Shown here in pieces: positions 7,226 through 13,088 of a stretch of 39,482 nt of DNA (its first letter is position 1; every line of letters begins with the position of its first letter). The notes beneath the pieces are model-generated. The model was not told the origin of the DNA. It worked only from the letters and a program-made list of their open reading frames with translations, and searched no databases. This stretch comes from Planctomycetota bacterium (GTDB lineage: Bacteria > Planctomycetota > UBA1135), in contig JAPKEZ010000002.1 of assembly GCA_028821845.1 (NCBI GenBank), positions 1 to 39,482 of the forward strand, given 5' to 3'. The position numbers and the translations under genes were made by a program.

Positions 7226-8688
7226 TGCGAGACGCCATCCTCGCTATAGATCAGGGAACGACCTCGTCGCGAGTTGTTCTTTTTGGTCTTGACGGCGAAG
7301 TCCTTCAATTTTTTCAGCACGAGTTTGCGAGTAGTTACCCGCAAAGTGGCTGGGTTGAGCAAGATGCTAATTCGATATGGGAGGATGTCTTTAGATTGTG
7401 TAGCGAAGCTGTTGCATATGCTAGCCTCAATGATTTACGAATCGATTCTATGGGCATCACGAATCAAAGAGAGACTGTTGTTTTCTTTGACAAAACCACT
7501 CAGCTCGCCCTTTCTCCGGCGATTGTTTGGCAAGATCGCCGGACTACAGAAGCCTGCCGCAAGCTCATAGATGCTGGACGCAGCGAGTTTGTAAAGCAGC
7601 GTACTGGGTTGGTAATTGATCCCTATTTTTCAGCGAGCAAAATTGAGTGGGGCCTAAAACACGATAGTAAAGTTCAAGAGGCGTTGGCTAATCAAAATTT
7701 AGGCGTCGCCACTATCGATAGCTGGTTGCTATACAAATTAACCTATGGCAAGCTGCACGCTACCGATTCGTCTAACGCCTCGCGAACAATGTTGTTTGAC
7801 ATAGTCGAACACCGTTGGTGCGAGGAGCTACTCGCGCTGTTCGATGTTCCGCAAGAAATATTACCACGAGTCATGAACTCGATTGACGATTATGGGTCAA
7901 CCGCCGATGGATTATTTGACATAACTATACCTATATGCGCACTGATTGGTGACCAGCAGTCGGCAGCCATTGGCCAAAACTGTCTCACTAAAGGTGATGG
8001 CAAATGCACTCTAGGCACGGGTGCTTTTGCCATGCAAAACATCGGCAACGAATTCTGTATAAACGGTAACGGGTTGTTAACAACAATTTTATTCAGCTAC
8101 AAAGGCACTATTACCTACGCCACCGAGGGCAGTGTTTTTTCAAGTGGCAGCACAATGCAGTGGTTACGCGATTCGCTCGGCATCATCAATCATCCTCGCG
8201 ATAGTGAAAAAATTTCCGCCAGCATCGACGGCACTGGTGGGGTCTACTTAGTACCGGCATTCAACGGACTTGCCGCACCGCATTGGAGTCCCGATGCGCG
8301 CGCAATGATGGTTGGTATCAGCAACAAAACCACACGCAAAGAAATCGTCCGCGCAGCGCTCGAAGCTGTCAGTTATCAATGTCATGACATTTTCTCTGGT
8401 GACCTACCAGAGTCATTGAAAGTCGATGGCGGTATGTCCGCAAACGATTGGCTGTTGCAGCACCTTGCCGATATTTTGCAATGCCGCGTGGTGCGGGCCG
8501 CCAACCTTGAAGCATCCGCCTGGGGAGCTGCACGTTGCGCTGCCATTGGGCACGGCTTATTAGACCTAGCTAGTGACGTTACAATAAGCGGCGACAGCTT
8601 CACTCCAATGATGAAAAAGGACGAGCGGCAACAACTATTAGCAGGCTGGTACGCCGCTGTCGACAGCTGTATCAAACTAAATGCCTAA
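7225..8688 (+). CDS. glpK: Glycerol kinase
   Basis: Motifs AIDQGTTSSR, GITNQRET, AIVWQDRRT, IDPYFSASK, GDQQSA and VDGG. Confidence 0.93.
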   Translation: MRDAILAIDQGTTSSRVVLFGLDGEVLQFFQHEFASSYPQSGWVEQDANSIWEDVFRLCSEAVAYASLNDLRIDSMGITNQRETVVFFDKTTQLALSPAIVWQDRRTTEACRKLIDAGRSEFVKQRTGLVIDPYFSASKIEWGLKHDSKVQEALANQNLGVATIDSWLLYKLTYGKLHATDSSNASRTMLFDIVEHRWCEELLALFDVPQEILPRVMNSIDDYGSTADGLFDITIPICALIGDQQSAAIGQNCLTKGDGKCTLGTGAFAMQNIGNEFCINGNGLLTTILFSYKGTITYATEGSVFSSGSTMQWLRDSLGIINHPRDSEKISASIDGTGGVYLVPAFNGLAAPHWSPDARAMMVGISNKTTRKEIVRAALEAVSYQCHDIFSGDLPESLKVDGGMSANDWLLQHLADILQCRVVRAANLEASAWGAARCAAIGHGLLDLASDVTISGDSFTPMMKKDERQQLLAGWYAAVDSCIKLNA

Positions 8689-10744
8689 CTCTATACGTCC
8701 GCGCAATGCTTTGCTTACTGCCATTAAACGCATATGGTGGCTTATGGGAGCACTGCTAATCATTATGAGTGGCTTTCGCCTACTCTTCGTGATTCAGTTT
8801 GCTCACCCTGAGGTATTTACCGATTTTTTCAGCGCCTTGCCATCGGCATTCGCCTTCGGAGTATTGCACGACTTGCGAATCCTGTCATTGATTTCGCTAC
8901 CAACCACTCTTTCACTTTTGTGGATGCGTCAGCGCACGCCAAAACGCTGGAGTCTTTGGTTGGGCCGCACGACACTTTACTGGACCTTCGTTATTTCATT
9001 CATTTTCATCGCACTTGGCGCTGATCAAATCTATTATTCTTACTTTCAGAGCCACTTCAACATTCTCGCCTTTGGCGCAGTTGAAGACGACGTTAGTGCC
9101 GTACTGATTAGTGCCTGGGAAACATACCCATTGGCCCTATACTTCGCAATGATTCTCGGGACCACCTATTTGCTCTACCGGGTAGTCCGCCGCGCATTTC
9201 GAGTTTCAAACTTCTTGCATATCGAAAAGCAGCCCGAGATAAAACAAGTTGAAATTATGTTCAACTGGCATTTCAGTTCTCATTTAGTATGCACTGTTAT
9301 GCTTTGCTCGATATCGCTAACACCAGCCTTTGTCCAGCTTAACAAAAATTTCCCCCAATCAAACTTTGTGCGTTCAGTAAGCGAAAGTGGTGTTGAAGAA
9401 CTGGCCGAAACAGTTTGGAATAGGATTCTGGAGAGAGATCTTTCTACGGCTACAAAGTTTGGGTACGCTACAGCCGACGGTGCTCTTAGCGAACTATTTC
9501 CCAACAGAACCTTTGGCGGCGAAACTCTATTCAGTAAGATACCCACGCAATATTTTAAGCCCGAGATTAAAAGTGACAGCAGACCGCACGTCGTGTTGAT
9601 AGTCATGGAAAGTTTAGCCACTCATCTATTGCGATTCCAAGACAGTAACTTCGATTTGCTTGGCAGCGCCAAGCAACATTTTGAGAACGGTGTTCTCTTT
9701 GAACGCTTCCTGCCAGCTGACAATATTTCTGCAGGAAGTATTCTTGGTCTCTTCACCAATTTGCCTTACCGGCCAAACACCAAACAGCTATCTCAGGGCA
9801 CAAGCCAGGGCGCTACCTTTTTAACCTCATCTGCCTCGCTGTTTGCCAATCAGGGTTATGACACTGCCTTTTATTATGGCGGAGAAACAAACTGGCGAGA
9901 TCTCGACACGTTTTTACCTTTACAAAACTACAAAGAACTCGTCGGGCAAAAAGAGATTGTAGAGCGCTACCAACTAAACTTAGAAAAAGATGCCGCTCCA
10001 TGGGGGATCTGGGATGAGCATTTGTTCCGCGCGGTAGGCGATCGATTAAAGGAAGCACAGAGTCCTACATTTATGATTGTGTTTACCACCACCAATCATC
10101 CACCAAATCAGTTGCCGGCCAACTCTGACCTGCCAAAATTAAACCCAAGTAAATCTTTTTTACAGCTGGCCGCTGGCGACCAAGGTTTAAGTTCAATACA
10201 GCAGCAGCAAATTTTAACGTATCAATATTCAAATCATCAACTAGGTGATTTCCTCGACGACTTAAAGACAAGCGGGCTCGCAAAAGACACGGTAATTGGC
10301 ATCACCGGAGACCACACCGCTGGCATGGGCATCCCTTTTGCCCAGAGCGAGTTGATTCTCAAGCGCGCCGTACCATTTGTATTACTCACGCCAGATTACA
10401 TCAGCGAGCAATACCAGGCGAATTCACTCACGCCAGGCAGCCATAAAGATGTAATCCCCACCCTGTTTCATGCCGCTGGATTGGGGCATAAAGGCTACAA
10501 AGGTCTGGGCACAAGCCTACTCGACAACAGCATCTATCATTTTGGATGCAACGCCGATGGTTTCGTGATTTACGATGGTGGGCTGGCAAATATGCGCCAA
10601 AATGGATTTGATAGCTACAAATGGTCTGATAGCGGATATTTGATTAACGACGAACCTGATGATGAAAACGCTGAAATAGCCGTAAATCGCTATAGAGCGA
10701 TTGTGTCGCTCACCGATTGGTTAATTTTCTCATTTTCGGATTAA
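8681..10744 (+). CDS. LTA synthase (LtaS)/phosphoglycerol transferase-family membrane sulfatase-fold protein
   Basis: About 5 N-terminal TM segments followed by a sulfatase-fold domain: VVLIVMES, TTTNHPP, GDH, VPF and SHKD..PT. Confidence 0.85.
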   Translation: MPNSIRPRNALLTAIKRIWWLMGALLIIMSGFRLLFVIQFAHPEVFTDFFSALPSAFAFGVLHDLRILSLISLPTTLSLLWMRQRTPKRWSLWLGRTTLYWTFVISFIFIALGADQIYYSYFQSHFNILAFGAVEDDVSAVLISAWETYPLALYFAMILGTTYLLYRVVRRAFRVSNFLHIEKQPEIKQVEIMFNWHFSSHLVCTVMLCSISLTPAFVQLNKNFPQSNFVRSVSESGVEELAETVWNRILERDLSTATKFGYATADGALSELFPNRTFGGETLFSKIPTQYFKPEIKSDSRPHVVLIVMESLATHLLRFQDSNFDLLGSAKQHFENGVLFERFLPADNISAGSILGLFTNLPYRPNTKQLSQGTSQGATFLTSSASLFANQGYDTAFYYGGETNWRDLDTFLPLQNYKELVGQKEIVERYQLNLEKDAAPWGIWDEHLFRAVGDRLKEAQSPTFMIVFTTTNHPPNQLPANSDLPKLNPSKSFLQLAAGDQGLSSIQQQQILTYQYSNHQLGDFLDDLKTSGLAKDTVIGITGDHTAGMGIPFAQSELILKRAVPFVLLTPDYISEQYQANSLTPGSHKDVIPTLFHAAGLGHKGYKGLGTSLLDNSIYHFGCNADGFVIYDGGLANMRQNGFDSYKWSDSGYLINDEPDDENAEIAVNRYRAIVSLTDWLIFSFSD

Positions 10745-10793: not shown

Positions 10794-11828
10794 ATGAAAA
10801 AAACACTTAGCATAATTTTAGCTTTAGCTGGCATAGCTGTTTTCAGCTCTCCGGCATTTGGCGCACCTCAATGATGAGGCGGCGGCGGCCCCCGTGGGGG
10901 TGCTGGTTACTCGGGTCCGGGTGACACATCAAATCCAGGCGGTGCAGGCCCTGCTTCGCCTTCTACACCTACTGGTGGCGGCGTTCCAGGCGCGCCTTCG
11001 ACACCAGGTGGTGGCGCAGGTCCAGCGACCCCAGCAGGCGGTGGCGCAGCAATGCCATTACCGCCGCACGGTCAAACGGCTAAAGATATCATGAAGCTAA
11101 AGTGGGATTTCCCTACTCATAATATCTACAAGCGCGAAGATACCAAAGGTGCCAACGCAACTATTGCAACAAAAATAGAAGCCGCTCTTCCAGAGCAAGA
11201 AGCTTATTTTACGATTGCAGGCGACGACCGTCGTCCGTTGCTAGTGCTTCGCGAGTGTTTGATATGTAACGGCACTGATGACGCATTACTTTCAAGTTAT
11301 GAAAACAATGAAGCCGTCTTGATAGTTACTCGTTGGTTCCATTGCGTTAAGTTGCCTACAGACATTCTTAGCGACGAGCATTCATTCCATACTTTGTTCG
11401 AGGGTGACCACCCACCGCACTTATTCGTGTCGCGCTGGGATGGCAGTAATCCAATTGAATTGCGCGGAGATTTGTCTCGTAGCGAATTGTTGGGCAACAT
11501 GTACGCAACCTTGAAGGCGGAATACAAAAAAGACGCAAAAAAGGCGGCTAAAGAAATAACTAAGCTCATGTATGTTTACGACATGCTTGATGAAAAGATT
11601 CAACGTCTTGAAATCACAATCGACGACGAGCTAGAAAGACGTGGCCCTAAGTCTAAAAAGCTTAAGAAGTACCGCAAGCAGCTCGAAGCCGCACAAAAAG
11701 AAATGGCAGCAGCGAAAGAAAAGGAAGCCGTGCTTTCTAACCTTCAGCTAAAGAACCCTGACGAAGCGCCAAACGCACTCGCAGAACTCCTAGAGTCGCG
11801 TAAAAACGGCCTGCCGGCTGGTCAGTAA
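10794..11828 (+). CDS. Secreted thioredoxin-like (CxxC) protein with tandem in-frame TGA TGA; candidate Sec-Sec selenoprotein
   Basis: ATG 10794 (or 10782) is in frame with the 11052 ORF: MKKTLSIILALAGIAVFSSPAFGAPQ-TGA(10872)-TGA(10875)-GGGGPRGGAGYSGPGDTSNPGG..., then RPLLVLRECLIC ... WFHCVKLP and a coiled-coil C-terminus. 344 codons with read-through. Confidence 0.75.
10883..10905 (+). promoter_or_regulatory. Candidate bacterial SECIS hairpin
   Basis: CGGC-G-GCCCC [CGTG] GGGGT-GCTG forms about 9 bp with one bulged G. The apical loop has G at position 2 followed by U and begins 18 and 15 nt after the two TGA codons. Confidence 0.55.
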
Positions 11829-11833
11829 TTTAT

Positions 11834-11870
11834 TACAATTAGGGAGATGCATCGTCACTCCCTAATTGTA
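11834..11870. repeat. Perfect 13-bp inverted repeat enclosing a start codon
   Basis: TACAATTAGGGAG (11834-11846), then the loop ATGCATCGTCA, then CTCCCTAATTGTA (11858-11870). Confidence 0.9.
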
Positions 11871-13088
11871 CGTTTCTCTCTTTTGTGCCTAGCGTTAGTC
11901 ACATGTACTACATTTGCTAGCGCACAAAAGAAGAAAGACGGCGACGATAAAGAAAAGAAATATAAAGAAGATCCATACACCGAGAATATCGAAGATGTAT
12001 GGCGCGTAGCTGGTTATGAAGCTATGGGTGATTTTGGCTGGGCCGACGGTCACGGTACAGTAAACATCGAAGATGCCATTGGCGAAGAAGAGTTAATCTT
12101 CATCGAAACTAAACACTTTAAAATTGGTTGCTGTTTGCCAAACTATAAAATTTCTCGCGAAGATAAAGTCGAAAAAAATAAAATAGAGGGTGAACTAGAT
12201 GAATTACGCAAAATAATTCCTAATATACCTAGACGCGTAAAGGTACTCGACAAATGGTTGCGACTGCACCTTTATGCCATGCGTATCGAAAAGCTATACA
12301 CTAGTATTCAGAGTATACTGCAAGTTAGCGACGATGATTTCCCGACTGGTCCTGGTCAATTAAAGAATGGTAAATACATGGGTGAAGGCCCCTACTTGGG
12401 GATGAAGTCTAAGTTCACTTTATTGCTGTTTGACAAAGAGAGTAGTGTCGGCCGTTACCGCACTGCATTCATGGGGGAAACGGGTGTTATCCCTATTCGC
12501 TTCTTGTTTCCGAACGAAGGCACTCTGCTGTATGCATGTGCTGCTCAAAACGAAGGTCTTGCTTCTGATACCACCATGCACTGCGCAATGGTGTATGCGG
12601 TTACTCAGAATCTTCTAAACGGTTATCGGCACTATGGCCAGGCGATGCCGACTTGGTTACCGCTGGGTGTTGCTCATTCGTTGGCCCGCGACATTGATCA
12701 GAAACGCAACTATTTCACCGATAAGCGGCTCTACGATTCGGAAGACAAGAACATATGGAAGTGGGACACTAAAACCCGCAAACGCGTCGATTACGATATC
12801 GCCATTCCGTATCAAGCGATGACAGCGTGGGGTTCGCCGACTTCCTTGTCTTATAACGACCACGTAATGGCGTGGGCGCGCGTAGATTTTCTGCTGAAGG
12901 AACATAAGGATTGGGTGGCTAAATGGCTGTACCGGATGCAGGACAGCTATGCTCCAACCCTAGTTCCGTCTGCTGAGCAACTTGTAGAGCGCGACAAAGA
13001 GACCGTGGCAGAGATATTTGTCTTTGAAGATGGTGACTTCGAGTCAGTTTGGCAGCAGTGGGTTAAAAAAAATTATAAAAGAAAATAG
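11847..13088 (+). CDS. Secreted hypothetical protein, possibly a degenerate zincin-like (peptidase MA-like) fold
   Basis: Signal peptide ending TFASA|Q. PTWLPLGVAH resembles the PxWxxEGxA motif, but no HExxH is present. Confidence 0.7.
   Translation: MHRHSLIVRFSLLCLALVTCTTFASAQKKKDGDDKEKKYKEDPYTENIEDVWRVAGYEAMGDFGWADGHGTVNIEDAIGEEELIFIETKHFKIGCCLPNYKISREDKVEKNKIEGELDELRKIIPNIPRRVKVLDKWLRLHLYAMRIEKLYTSIQSILQVSDDDFPTGPGQLKNGKYMGEGPYLGMKSKFTLLLFDKESSVGRYRTAFMGETGVIPIRFLFPNEGTLLYACAAQNEGLASDTTMHCAMVYAVTQNLLNGYRHYGQAMPTWLPLGVAHSLARDIDQKRNYFTDKRLYDSEDKNIWKWDTKTRKRVDYDIAIPYQAMTAWGSPTSLSYNDHVMAWARVDFLLKEHKDWVAKWLYRMQDSYAPTLVPSAEQLVERDKETVAEIFVFEDGDFESVWQQWVKKNYKRK

Follow-up and report, generated by a model that had tools for sequence, protein, structure and literature searches.

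Can a single RNA hairpin inside a coding sequence direct the insertion of selenocysteine (Sec) at two UGA codons in a row? The question is raised by a stretch of 39,482 nucleotides (nt) from a marine bacterium of the phylum Planctomycetota (assembly GCA_028821845.1, contig JAPKEZ010000002.1), which is called the window throughout. In one of its genes two adjacent in-frame UGA codons are followed by a GC-rich hairpin, and an original prediction, made from the sequence alone, proposed this hairpin as one Sec insertion sequence (SECIS) for both codons. The same prediction called such a double delivery mechanistically unusual, because the advance of the ribosome shortens the spacing. Our answer has two parts. 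For the family to which the gene belongs, the comparison of homologues supports one SECIS element serving both codons. For the gene itself we favour, with some reserve, a second hairpin that directly follows the one first proposed.

Two adjacent selenocysteine codons in an undescribed family

At this locus the standard genetic code (table 11) yields only an open reading frame (ORF) at 11052-11828. With TGA read as Sec (U), the frame is open from an upstream ATG (Table 1), and the product reads MKKTLSIILALAGIAVFSSPAFGAPQ-UU-GGGGPRGGAGYSGPGD..., followed by a Gly/Pro linker and a domain of 258 amino acids (aa). The DNA around the dyad runs GCA CCT CAA TGA TGA GGC GGC GGC GGC CCC CGT GGG GGT GCT GGT TAC TCG GGT CCG GGT GAC.

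The domain has 617 relatives in the databases at an expect value (E) of ≤ 0.001. Among the 120 relatives listed, none carries a Pfam domain, and the named sources are mostly metagenome-assembled genomes of marine Planctomycetota. Nearly all of the 18 public proteins of relatives that were read begin inside or after the linker. Two relatives, P0045 and P0055, are full-length cysteine (Cys) forms; their uninterrupted ORFs lead from a signal peptide to the sequence QCGGYGG.

Homologous loci were taken from four sources: 18 from genome contigs (L018 was dropped, its N-terminus being missing), 26 from a phylum sample of 401 genomes, of which 22 had a match, 19 from metagenome contigs (L071 and L072 were dropped as truncated) and 40 from the taxonomic family of the window (L117 was dropped). 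In the last set five genomes of the same genus and three matches at contig ends were left out; 45 of the 49 genomes searched in this taxonomic family have the gene. Collapsing identical 75-nt stretches gave 90 distinct sequences, 82 with UGA and eight with Cys only. The Sec forms are UU (35), UC (31), CU (6) or have U alone (10), so that each UGA position is a Cys codon in some homologues; L051 and L053 read GCUG at the dyad. The frame through the UGAs is kept in all loci read. Across 13 distinct close genes the 58 codons of the linker show synonymous change, and insertions or deletions come in multiples of three, so that the frame is preserved.

The UGAs thus align with Cys codons in full-length homologues while the frame is kept, which makes this a selenoprotein gene. 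As judged from homology, both UGAs of the window gene are almost certainly read as Sec. The family is an undescribed family of exported selenoproteins that gene callers have shortened.

A hairpin with a GU loop downstream of the UGA codons

The sequences were scanned from +15 to +55, counted from the U of the first UGA, for hairpins of at least 5 contiguous pairs with a loop of 3-7 nt starting with GU or NGU. Such a hairpin is present in 75 of the 82 Sec forms as against two of the eight Cys forms. The stretch from +90 to +130 of the same genes gave 18 of 82, and codon-order shuffles gave 18.6 on average and 30 at most. With a strict NGUN tetraloop, applied to the first 53 sequences, the counts were 25/48 in Sec forms, 0/5 in Cys forms and 1/48 downstream, as compared with 1.4 on average after shuffling. 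Among the loops, GGUC (15), AGUU (12), AGUUC (11) and GGU (10) are the most frequent. In the 20 genes with AGUU-type loops the Ser codon of the loop is AGU; elsewhere in those genes AGU accounts for 47 of 696 Ser codons.

The stems differ completely among subfamilies, with 30 distinct 6-bp stems in 46 hairpins. In 15 tetraloop hairpins, aligned under the fixed NGUN loop, eight of eight pairs have changed on both sides. Paired cells amount to 89% in this set as compared with 59% after shuffling (0/500 shuffles reach the score) and 34-57% with slid partners; since only hairpins with 5 or more pairs had entered this set, the share of paired cells is inflated, the double changes are not. Related sequences, moreover, are not independent, neither in the covariation nor in the counts. 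Both points weigh against our interpretation. Seven Sec forms, L114, L115, L116, L100, L111, L036 and L050, have no GU-loop hairpin by the criteria of the scan. The first three are UC forms with a short linker, and some of the seven have versions with 4 bp or a mismatch. An Rfam scan of the whole window found nothing at the gathering score of any family, SECIS families included.

How far does the hairpin lie from the codons? The register of the loop G was counted from the U of the first UGA in the dyad, in CU and U-alone forms from the single UGA. Among the 31 UC forms it is +26 (13), +23 (10), +29 (2) or +22 (1), in CU forms +26 (3), +23 (2) or +25 (1). The 35 UU forms have +26 (20), +29 (3), +23 (2), +41 to +53 (9, the subgroup of the window) or no such hairpin (1). 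Most UU genes outside this subgroup accordingly have one hairpin, whose loop G stands at +26 when counted from the first UGA and at +23 when counted from the second. Relatives with a single Sec use these two registers as well, which is comparative support for one element serving two codons. Such sharing is supported for the family at the level of sequence. That two UGAs generally come with two hairpins was considered as a rule and rejected, as the other UU subfamilies mostly have one hairpin between +15 and +55.

A second hairpin in the window

The window's subgroup comprises 13 distinct genes with 65-95% DNA identity to the window. Here the picture is more complicated, for the gene has two hairpins in tandem: hairpin 1, which was the one first proposed, and hairpin 2, an 8-bp stem under a GGUC loop (Table 1). 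Hairpin 2 folds at -8.6 kcal/mol (z = -2.49; 1/200 shuffles fold as well). Positions 10905-10925 form a run of 21 nt that is invariant in all 13 genes, the next longest being 8 nt. All seven codons of the run, GGT TAC TCG GGT CCG GGT GAC, are codon-invariant in the subgroup, where only 25 of 166 amino-acid-invariant columns are so; the next longest such run is 2. The peptide YSGPGD is also found in L099, L100, L105 and L111. There it is encoded by other, non-pairing codons, and the candidate SECIS lies elsewhere or was not found. The constraint on hairpin 2 is thus one on RNA, and the sequences mark it as the element apparently under selection in the subgroup.

Homologues of hairpin 2 occur in the UC relatives L034, L095, L096 and L110 at the canonical +25, with the sequence GUUACCAG-GGUC-CUGGUGAC. 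Compared with these, two of eight pairs have changed on both sides, in a small sample of 5 distinct rows for which 20/500 shuffles reach the score. A covariance model, R1, was built from the other subfamilies only, without the subgroup of the window. Searched over the whole gene on both strands with filters off, R1 found hairpin 2 as the best hit, at 14.8 bits and E 0.014. Over 136 kb with default filters all hits had E ≥ 0.45; they included hairpin 2 in three loci of the subgroup plus unrelated sites, the window being unlisted. R1 is a small model with rough E-values that missed the hairpins of two other Sec genes of the same genome, selD and a molybdopterin oxidoreductase (see below), and this limits what its scores can say in favour of hairpin 2.

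There is more on the debit side. Hairpin 2 is far from the UGAs, its loop G being at +44 when counted from the first and at +41 when counted from the second. Within the subgroup the register varies from +41 to +53, as compared with +22 to +29 in almost all other genes, and such variation is surprising if SelB is tethered. Outside the subgroup a comparably long distance is found only in L088 (+44). Hairpin 1 is intact in the window, its G at +23 as in the fdhF gene of Escherichia coli, and its CGUG loop is conserved by a sister group. L079, a UU form, has the spacing of hairpin 1 and no hairpin 2. A structured spacer could place hairpin 2 physically near the ribosome: with hairpin 1 in this role, the spacer always folds (-8.8 to -17.3 kcal/mol), yet no better than expected from composition (z from -1.75 to +0.94). 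All of this speaks against hairpin 2. Weighing both sides, we consider it somewhat more probable than its competitors taken together that hairpin 2 is the principal SelB-binding SECIS of the window gene and serves both UGAs.

Does hairpin 1 suffice?

Following the original prediction, hairpin 1 alone might be the SECIS for both UGAs; hairpin 2 would then be conserved for some other purpose. The structure as such is real: sequence and RNAfold agree on a hairpin at 10883-10905 with a CGUG loop starting 18 and 15 nt after the two UGAs. RNAfold gives CGGCG.GCCC-CGU-GGGG.GUGCUG with 5 + 4 bp, one G.G mismatch and -14.2 kcal/mol, and the loop can be read as CGU or CGUG. Counted from the first UGA, its G stands at +23 and its U at +24, which is the geometry of E. 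coli fdhF. In the 10 distinct sequences of the sister group the core CCC CGU GG(G) is nearly invariant (CCC 10/10, CGU 10/10, GGG 9/10). No other hairpin with a GU loop is present there; its register is +22 to +26, in the single case of L088 +43 to +44, and the codons for G-Y-G-G-P-G-D show free variation. As L079 shows, this very spacing can suffice in a UU gene. In the taxonomic family CGUG loops are found again, on stems that differ, in L099 as well as in L090, L091 and L093. Within its subgroup the window alone has the full codon set of hairpin 1, nested in the tree among forms without it, a distribution compatible with lineage selection for hairpin 1.

The subgroup itself, however, does not keep hairpin 1. 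In its 12 other distinct genes the codons of P-R-G-G occur in 3, 3, 3 and 4 forms, and most members read CCU CGC GGC GGC, which leaves no GU loop. L064 and L065 retain the CGU codon, L016 and L063 the stem with a CGCG loop; none of the 12 retains both stem and GU loop, yet all have UGA UGA. A further suggestion, that RNA structure constrains the GGC codons of the poly-Gly run, does not survive the comparison: GGC and GGT alternate, Ser and Ala codons are substituted, and the run is 3 to 7 codons long. Conservation of hairpin 1 thus depends on where one looks, being nearly complete for the core in the sister group and absent in its own subgroup. The original prediction had itself warned that Gly and Pro codons easily form GC hairpins by chance. 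The stability of hairpin 1 is about what composition predicts (z = -1.77, with 12/200 dinucleotide shuffles folding as well), and neither the spacer 10878-10905 against mononucleotide shuffles (z = -0.36) nor the 60-nt region (z = -1.75) departs from this. R1 scores it at 2.8 bits. Its G lies at +20 from the second UGA, a register seen in no relative with a single Sec, where the minimum is +22. Finally, hairpin 1 as the sole SECIS leaves the invariance of the 21 nt at hairpin 2 unexplained. We therefore regard this explanation as unlikely. In the subgroup hairpin 1 is either decaying or a mere compacting spacer; in this genome it is intact and may still contribute, as a relic or an auxiliary.

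Distance as such does not decide between the two. The general bacterial SECIS model, as quoted with the original prediction, places the loop roughly 16-37 nt after the UGA. The hairpins lie at 18 and 15 nt (hairpin 1) and at 39 and 36 nt (hairpin 2), and each fits one UGA only. Of the idea that one element serves two UGAs, the general part has gained support from the UU genes and the shared registers, and its assignment to hairpin 1 has not. A hairpin that UGA-containing homologues fail to conserve had been named with the original prediction as its refutation, and this is what the genes of the subgroup show.

Could both hairpins act?

They might be redundant, they might form a composite three-way SECIS closed by UGAUG and CAUCA, or one might be favoured per UGA. 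In the minimum free energy (MFE) structure the two hairpins are indeed brought together by a closing helix of 5 bp, of which the UGAs are part. Both have a GU loop, and for each there are relatives in which it is the only SECIS candidate. Within the subgroup the closing strand has an invariant Ser codon, UCA at 10929-10931. The CAUCA partner is present in seven of nine distinct sequences of the subgroup; L063 has UAUCA and L064 GUUCA, and in L064 the closing helix is broken. Moreover, most members of the subgroup lack the GU loop of hairpin 1, so that a mechanism with two sites would not be general, and the other UU subfamilies mostly manage with a single hairpin between +15 and +55. Joint action is, in our judgement, improbable too.

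The UGAs themselves sit in a small hairpin, CCUCA-AUGA-UGAGG (10866-10879). A similar pairing is possible in relatives with CUUCA or CCUUC, and it may be a simple by-product of the conserved P/L-Q-U-U-G codons.

A possible hand-over between hairpins

How did the window come to have two hairpins? In a FastTree phylogeny, midpoint-rooted for drawing only, the subgroup of the window (9 rows, support 100) stands beside the sister group (support 85), and the forms with GGUC at +25 lie outside both. Hairpin 1 is homologous to the sole SECIS candidate of the sister group. The simplest reading would be that an insertion, encoding GGGGPRGGAG, displaced an older GGUC SECIS by about 18 nt and that a new CGUG hairpin arose inside the insertion. 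The sister group would have kept the new hairpin, the subgroup of the window the old one, at a long and variable distance. The window, carrying both and nested among relatives without hairpin 1, would then represent retention or re-evolution. L088 (G418:C162:3604-4837), a paralogue with a single Sec, has a CCC CGU GGG GG hairpin 43-44 nt from its UGA.

In mechanistic terms, both UGAs would be decoded by SelB and Sec-tRNA(Sec), guided by the RNA structure just downstream in the coding sequence. The 8-bp GGUC hairpin at 10906-10925 would bind SelB and serve for two successive deliveries; hairpin 1, homologue of the sister group's SECIS, would lie between it and the UGAs. Whether the complete picture is correct, i.e., natural bacterial SelB insertion at two consecutive UGAs from one SECIS region inside the ORF, widespread in Planctomycetota, with an N-terminal diselenide tip and a hand-over of the SECIS, we consider an even bet.

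Selenocysteine machinery and the use of UGA in this genome

The genome encodes the components needed. Profiles for selB (TIGR00475), selD and selA match with 293.9, 303.3 and 276.3 bits, respectively, all over the cut-offs, and ARAGORN finds a tRNA-SeC(tca). PF09105, the SelB wing, had no match in any genome, controls included, and is uninformative.

Other Sec codons of the genome allow a comparison of loops. The selD gene (contig C56:2134-3063, locus L009), just downstream of selA, has itself an in-frame UGA (…YAASAG-U-AAKLPP…), followed by a hairpin that is richer in A + U, with an AGUU-containing loop near +36. In a Sec-type molybdopterin-oxidoreductase gene the UGA is followed, at +27, by a GGUC loop, identical in sequence to that of hairpin 2. 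A further candidate selenoprotein, as yet unverified, is an ORF on contig C120:773 (locus L078:89-1462, + strand), a reprolysin-like M12 metallopeptidase (Pfam E 4e-15) with an in-frame UGA (…CDNYQY-U-GLAYL…) and a hairpin of 6-7 bp with an AGUU loop at +27. It would seem that the SelB of this genome tolerates loops between +27 and about +36.

Absence of release factor 2 (RF2) or a reassignment of UGA was considered and rejected. The RF2 gene prfB is present and TGA ends 129 of the 803 frames of at least 300 codons (16%, as compared with 61% TAA and 23% TAG); UGA is thus an ordinary stop elsewhere in the genome. The 27 long ORFs of the window end with TAA (22), TAG (4) and TGA (1). Despite the presence of RF2, TGA is used sparingly as a stop.

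That no Sec is made at all, UGA UGA being two stops in a row behind a leader of 26 codons or the mark of a broken gene, with the domain started at Met87 or not made, is hardly credible: the public gene calls do start 3' of the UGAs in 18 of 20 relatives read, and so does the table 11 ORF, but the alignment with Cys codons, the linker kept in frame, a hairpin missing in six of the eight Cys forms and the Sec machinery all contradict it, and a domain started at Met87 would have no signal peptide.

The protein and its neighbours

The product consists of a signal peptide, the Sec-Sec dyad, a Gly/Pro-rich linker, a CxxC domain of putative thioredoxin fold and a C-terminal helical hairpin. An equivalent hydrophobic N-terminus is found in all homologues and ends 2-4 residues before the dyad. 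The positions of all features are compiled in Table 1.

Table 1. Features of the selenoprotein locus (window positions, 5' to 3')
Feature	Position	Strand	Remarks
Selenoprotein gene	10794..11828	+	344 codons and stop; ATG at 10794, open with TGA = U
Signal peptide, coding part, MKKTLSIILALAGIAVFSSPAFG	10794..10862	+	Cleavage site judged by eye
Two adjacent in-frame UGA codons, Sec27 and Sec28	10872..10877	+	In frame with ATG 10794 and with 11052-11828
Hairpin 1; upper part GCCCC-CGUG-GGGGU at 10888-10901	10883..10905	+	Loop 10893-10896
Hairpin 2, GUUACUCG-GGUC-CGGGUGAC	10906..10925	+	8 bp, loop 10914-10917; absent from the original prediction
CAUCA, predicted to pair with UGAUG (10872-10876)	10927..10931	+	Putative three-way closure of both hairpins; weak, from the MFE structure
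CxxC motif of the thioredoxin-like domain, TGT TTG ATA TGT	11256..11267	+	C69/C72 invariant in 43 sequences
Conserved neighbour, 413 aa, exported, thermolysin/collagenase-like predicted fold	11847..13088	+	tblastn, AF2, Foldseek

Neither Pfam nor NCBIfam has a family for the selenoprotein, and a sequence-profile search of the PDB gave nothing below E 0.17. In the 43 sequences aligned, C98 of the domain is as invariant as the CxxC motif. The AlphaFold2 (AF2) model of the domain is of good quality (predicted local distance difference test, pLDDT, 88.1; predicted template modelling score, pTM, 0.82). With this model, the top rows of Foldseek are mostly thioredoxin folds, i.e., ERp19, the C-terminal domain of DsbD, protein disulfide isomerase (PDI) and AGR2, at weak E-values of 0.02-0.1; 1sen was found at E 0.02 (prob 0.98) and the DsbD domain with TMt 0.55-0.60. 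VIA-align matched residues 11-161 to 3f9u_B, a thioredoxin-like domain of an exported cytochrome c biogenesis protein (Z 8.8, root mean square deviation 3.5, 118 aligned). Over residues 157-234 it gave many helical-hairpin matches, as against this one thioredoxin-like chain. The Atlas neighbours of the domain, Thioredoxin_7 and Thioredoxin_2, score 0.82 and serve as a lead only. The weak fold matches, all with E above 0.001, would suggest a thioredoxin fold for the modelled domain.

If so, the exported protein would present two adjacent selenocysteines at its mature N-terminal tip, held by a flexible Gly/Pro tether to the CxxC domain. The UU tip may then work as a redox shuttle, possibly as a diselenide, beside the CxxC centre. 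The dyad lies at codons 27-28, so that failed recoding costs only a signal peptide. This low cost may make a tandem recoding of low efficiency affordable.

Of the 18 loci with flanking sequence, 15 have the 413-aa neighbour beside the selenoprotein gene, with 27-93% identity by tblastn. It has no family in Pfam or NCBIfam. Its AF2 model (pLDDT 83.7) finds peptidase domains of collagenases as top rows in Foldseek (E 2e-3, prob 1.00), and in its sequence no HExxH was seen; an invariant His245 is followed by Cys. In L020 and L022, which have a Cys paralogue of the selenoprotein, each copy has its own neighbour copy beside it. The neighbour may be a partner or a substrate of the Sec-Sec protein. 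Upstream, 8681-10744 (+) encodes an LtaS-like membrane protein of the sulfatase family (Pfam Sulfatase, E 1.4e-27), which is syntenic in close relatives and L019, not beyond.

Comparison with known systems

On the accepted view, bacteria insert Sec only where a SECIS lies close to a single UGA and at a fixed distance from it. This constraint is the reason why engineered proteins with several Sec residues or diselenides needed SECIS-free systems. A natural family with tandem UGAs offers a test bed for the spacing tolerance of SelB. Two further questions can be put to it: whether a second SelB-tRNA complex can reload on the same hairpin during a single elongation step, and what distance between codon and SECIS is possible when the spacer is structured.

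Full-text literature on adjacent or tandem Sec and on selenoproteins of Planctomycetes yielded no bacterial Sec-Sec, only an algal PDI_e. Nor does a bacterial protein with adjacent Sec appear in the passages found in three selenoproteome papers, namely the GOS paper, the BSepDB paper and a 2026 AEM review.

Among the close bacterial analogues are the selenoproteins with vicinal chalcogen dyads. As far as the passages on them go, they are likewise truncated at UGA by annotators, and UC and CU variants are found here as well. Their SECIS were recognized by a perfect stem of short length and a loop with G, for instance GGU. They differ in that each dyad has only one Sec, in their folds and in belonging to an anaerobic organometallic context; these passages mention no UU dyad.

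The domain resembles DsbD gamma and the a-type domains of ERp19/AGR2/PDI in its invariant CxxC and, by a weak match of the AF2 model, in fold. Unlike these oxidoreductases, it has an added long helical hairpin, an N-terminal Sec dyad and no Pfam or NCBIfam model. Mammalian thioredoxin reductase has a C-terminal Gly-Cys-Sec-Gly arm, a vicinal redox dyad that works by a dithiol centre. The likeness to this arm would be a functional one only, that of a tethered dyad near a CxxC. Here the arm is N-terminal, the protein is exported, the CxxC belongs to a putative thioredoxin fold instead of a flavoprotein, and the dyad is UU, not CU.

Eukaryotic SECIS elements lie in the 3' untranslated region, so that the spacing between codon and SECIS would not be limiting. 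The algal PDI_e selenoprotein with its GUGUU motif, for which a SECIS was predicted, is eukaryotic and was claimed as the first case of consecutive Sec-Sec (Jiang et al. 2020, PMC7539508). It shares with the present family the consecutive Sec residues and belongs to the thioredoxin/PDI fold class, the one predicted for the domain here. In contrast to it, the SECIS lies here inside the ORF, a few tens of nt from both codons; the two protein families may be unrelated.

In the fdhF SECIS of E. coli, G23 and U24 stand in the loop and the upper stem-loop lies 11 nt after the UGA (PMC8659212). The present family has the same type of element, a stem-loop inside the ORF and 3' of the UGA with G and U in its loop, and most of its members have the G at +23 or +26. 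It differs from fdhF in that two adjacent UGAs share the element. In the subgroup of the window there is a further difference: the conserved hairpin lies about 20 nt further downstream (loop G at +41 to +53 from the first UGA), and between it and the UGAs there is a spacer hairpin that is variable and rich in G+C.

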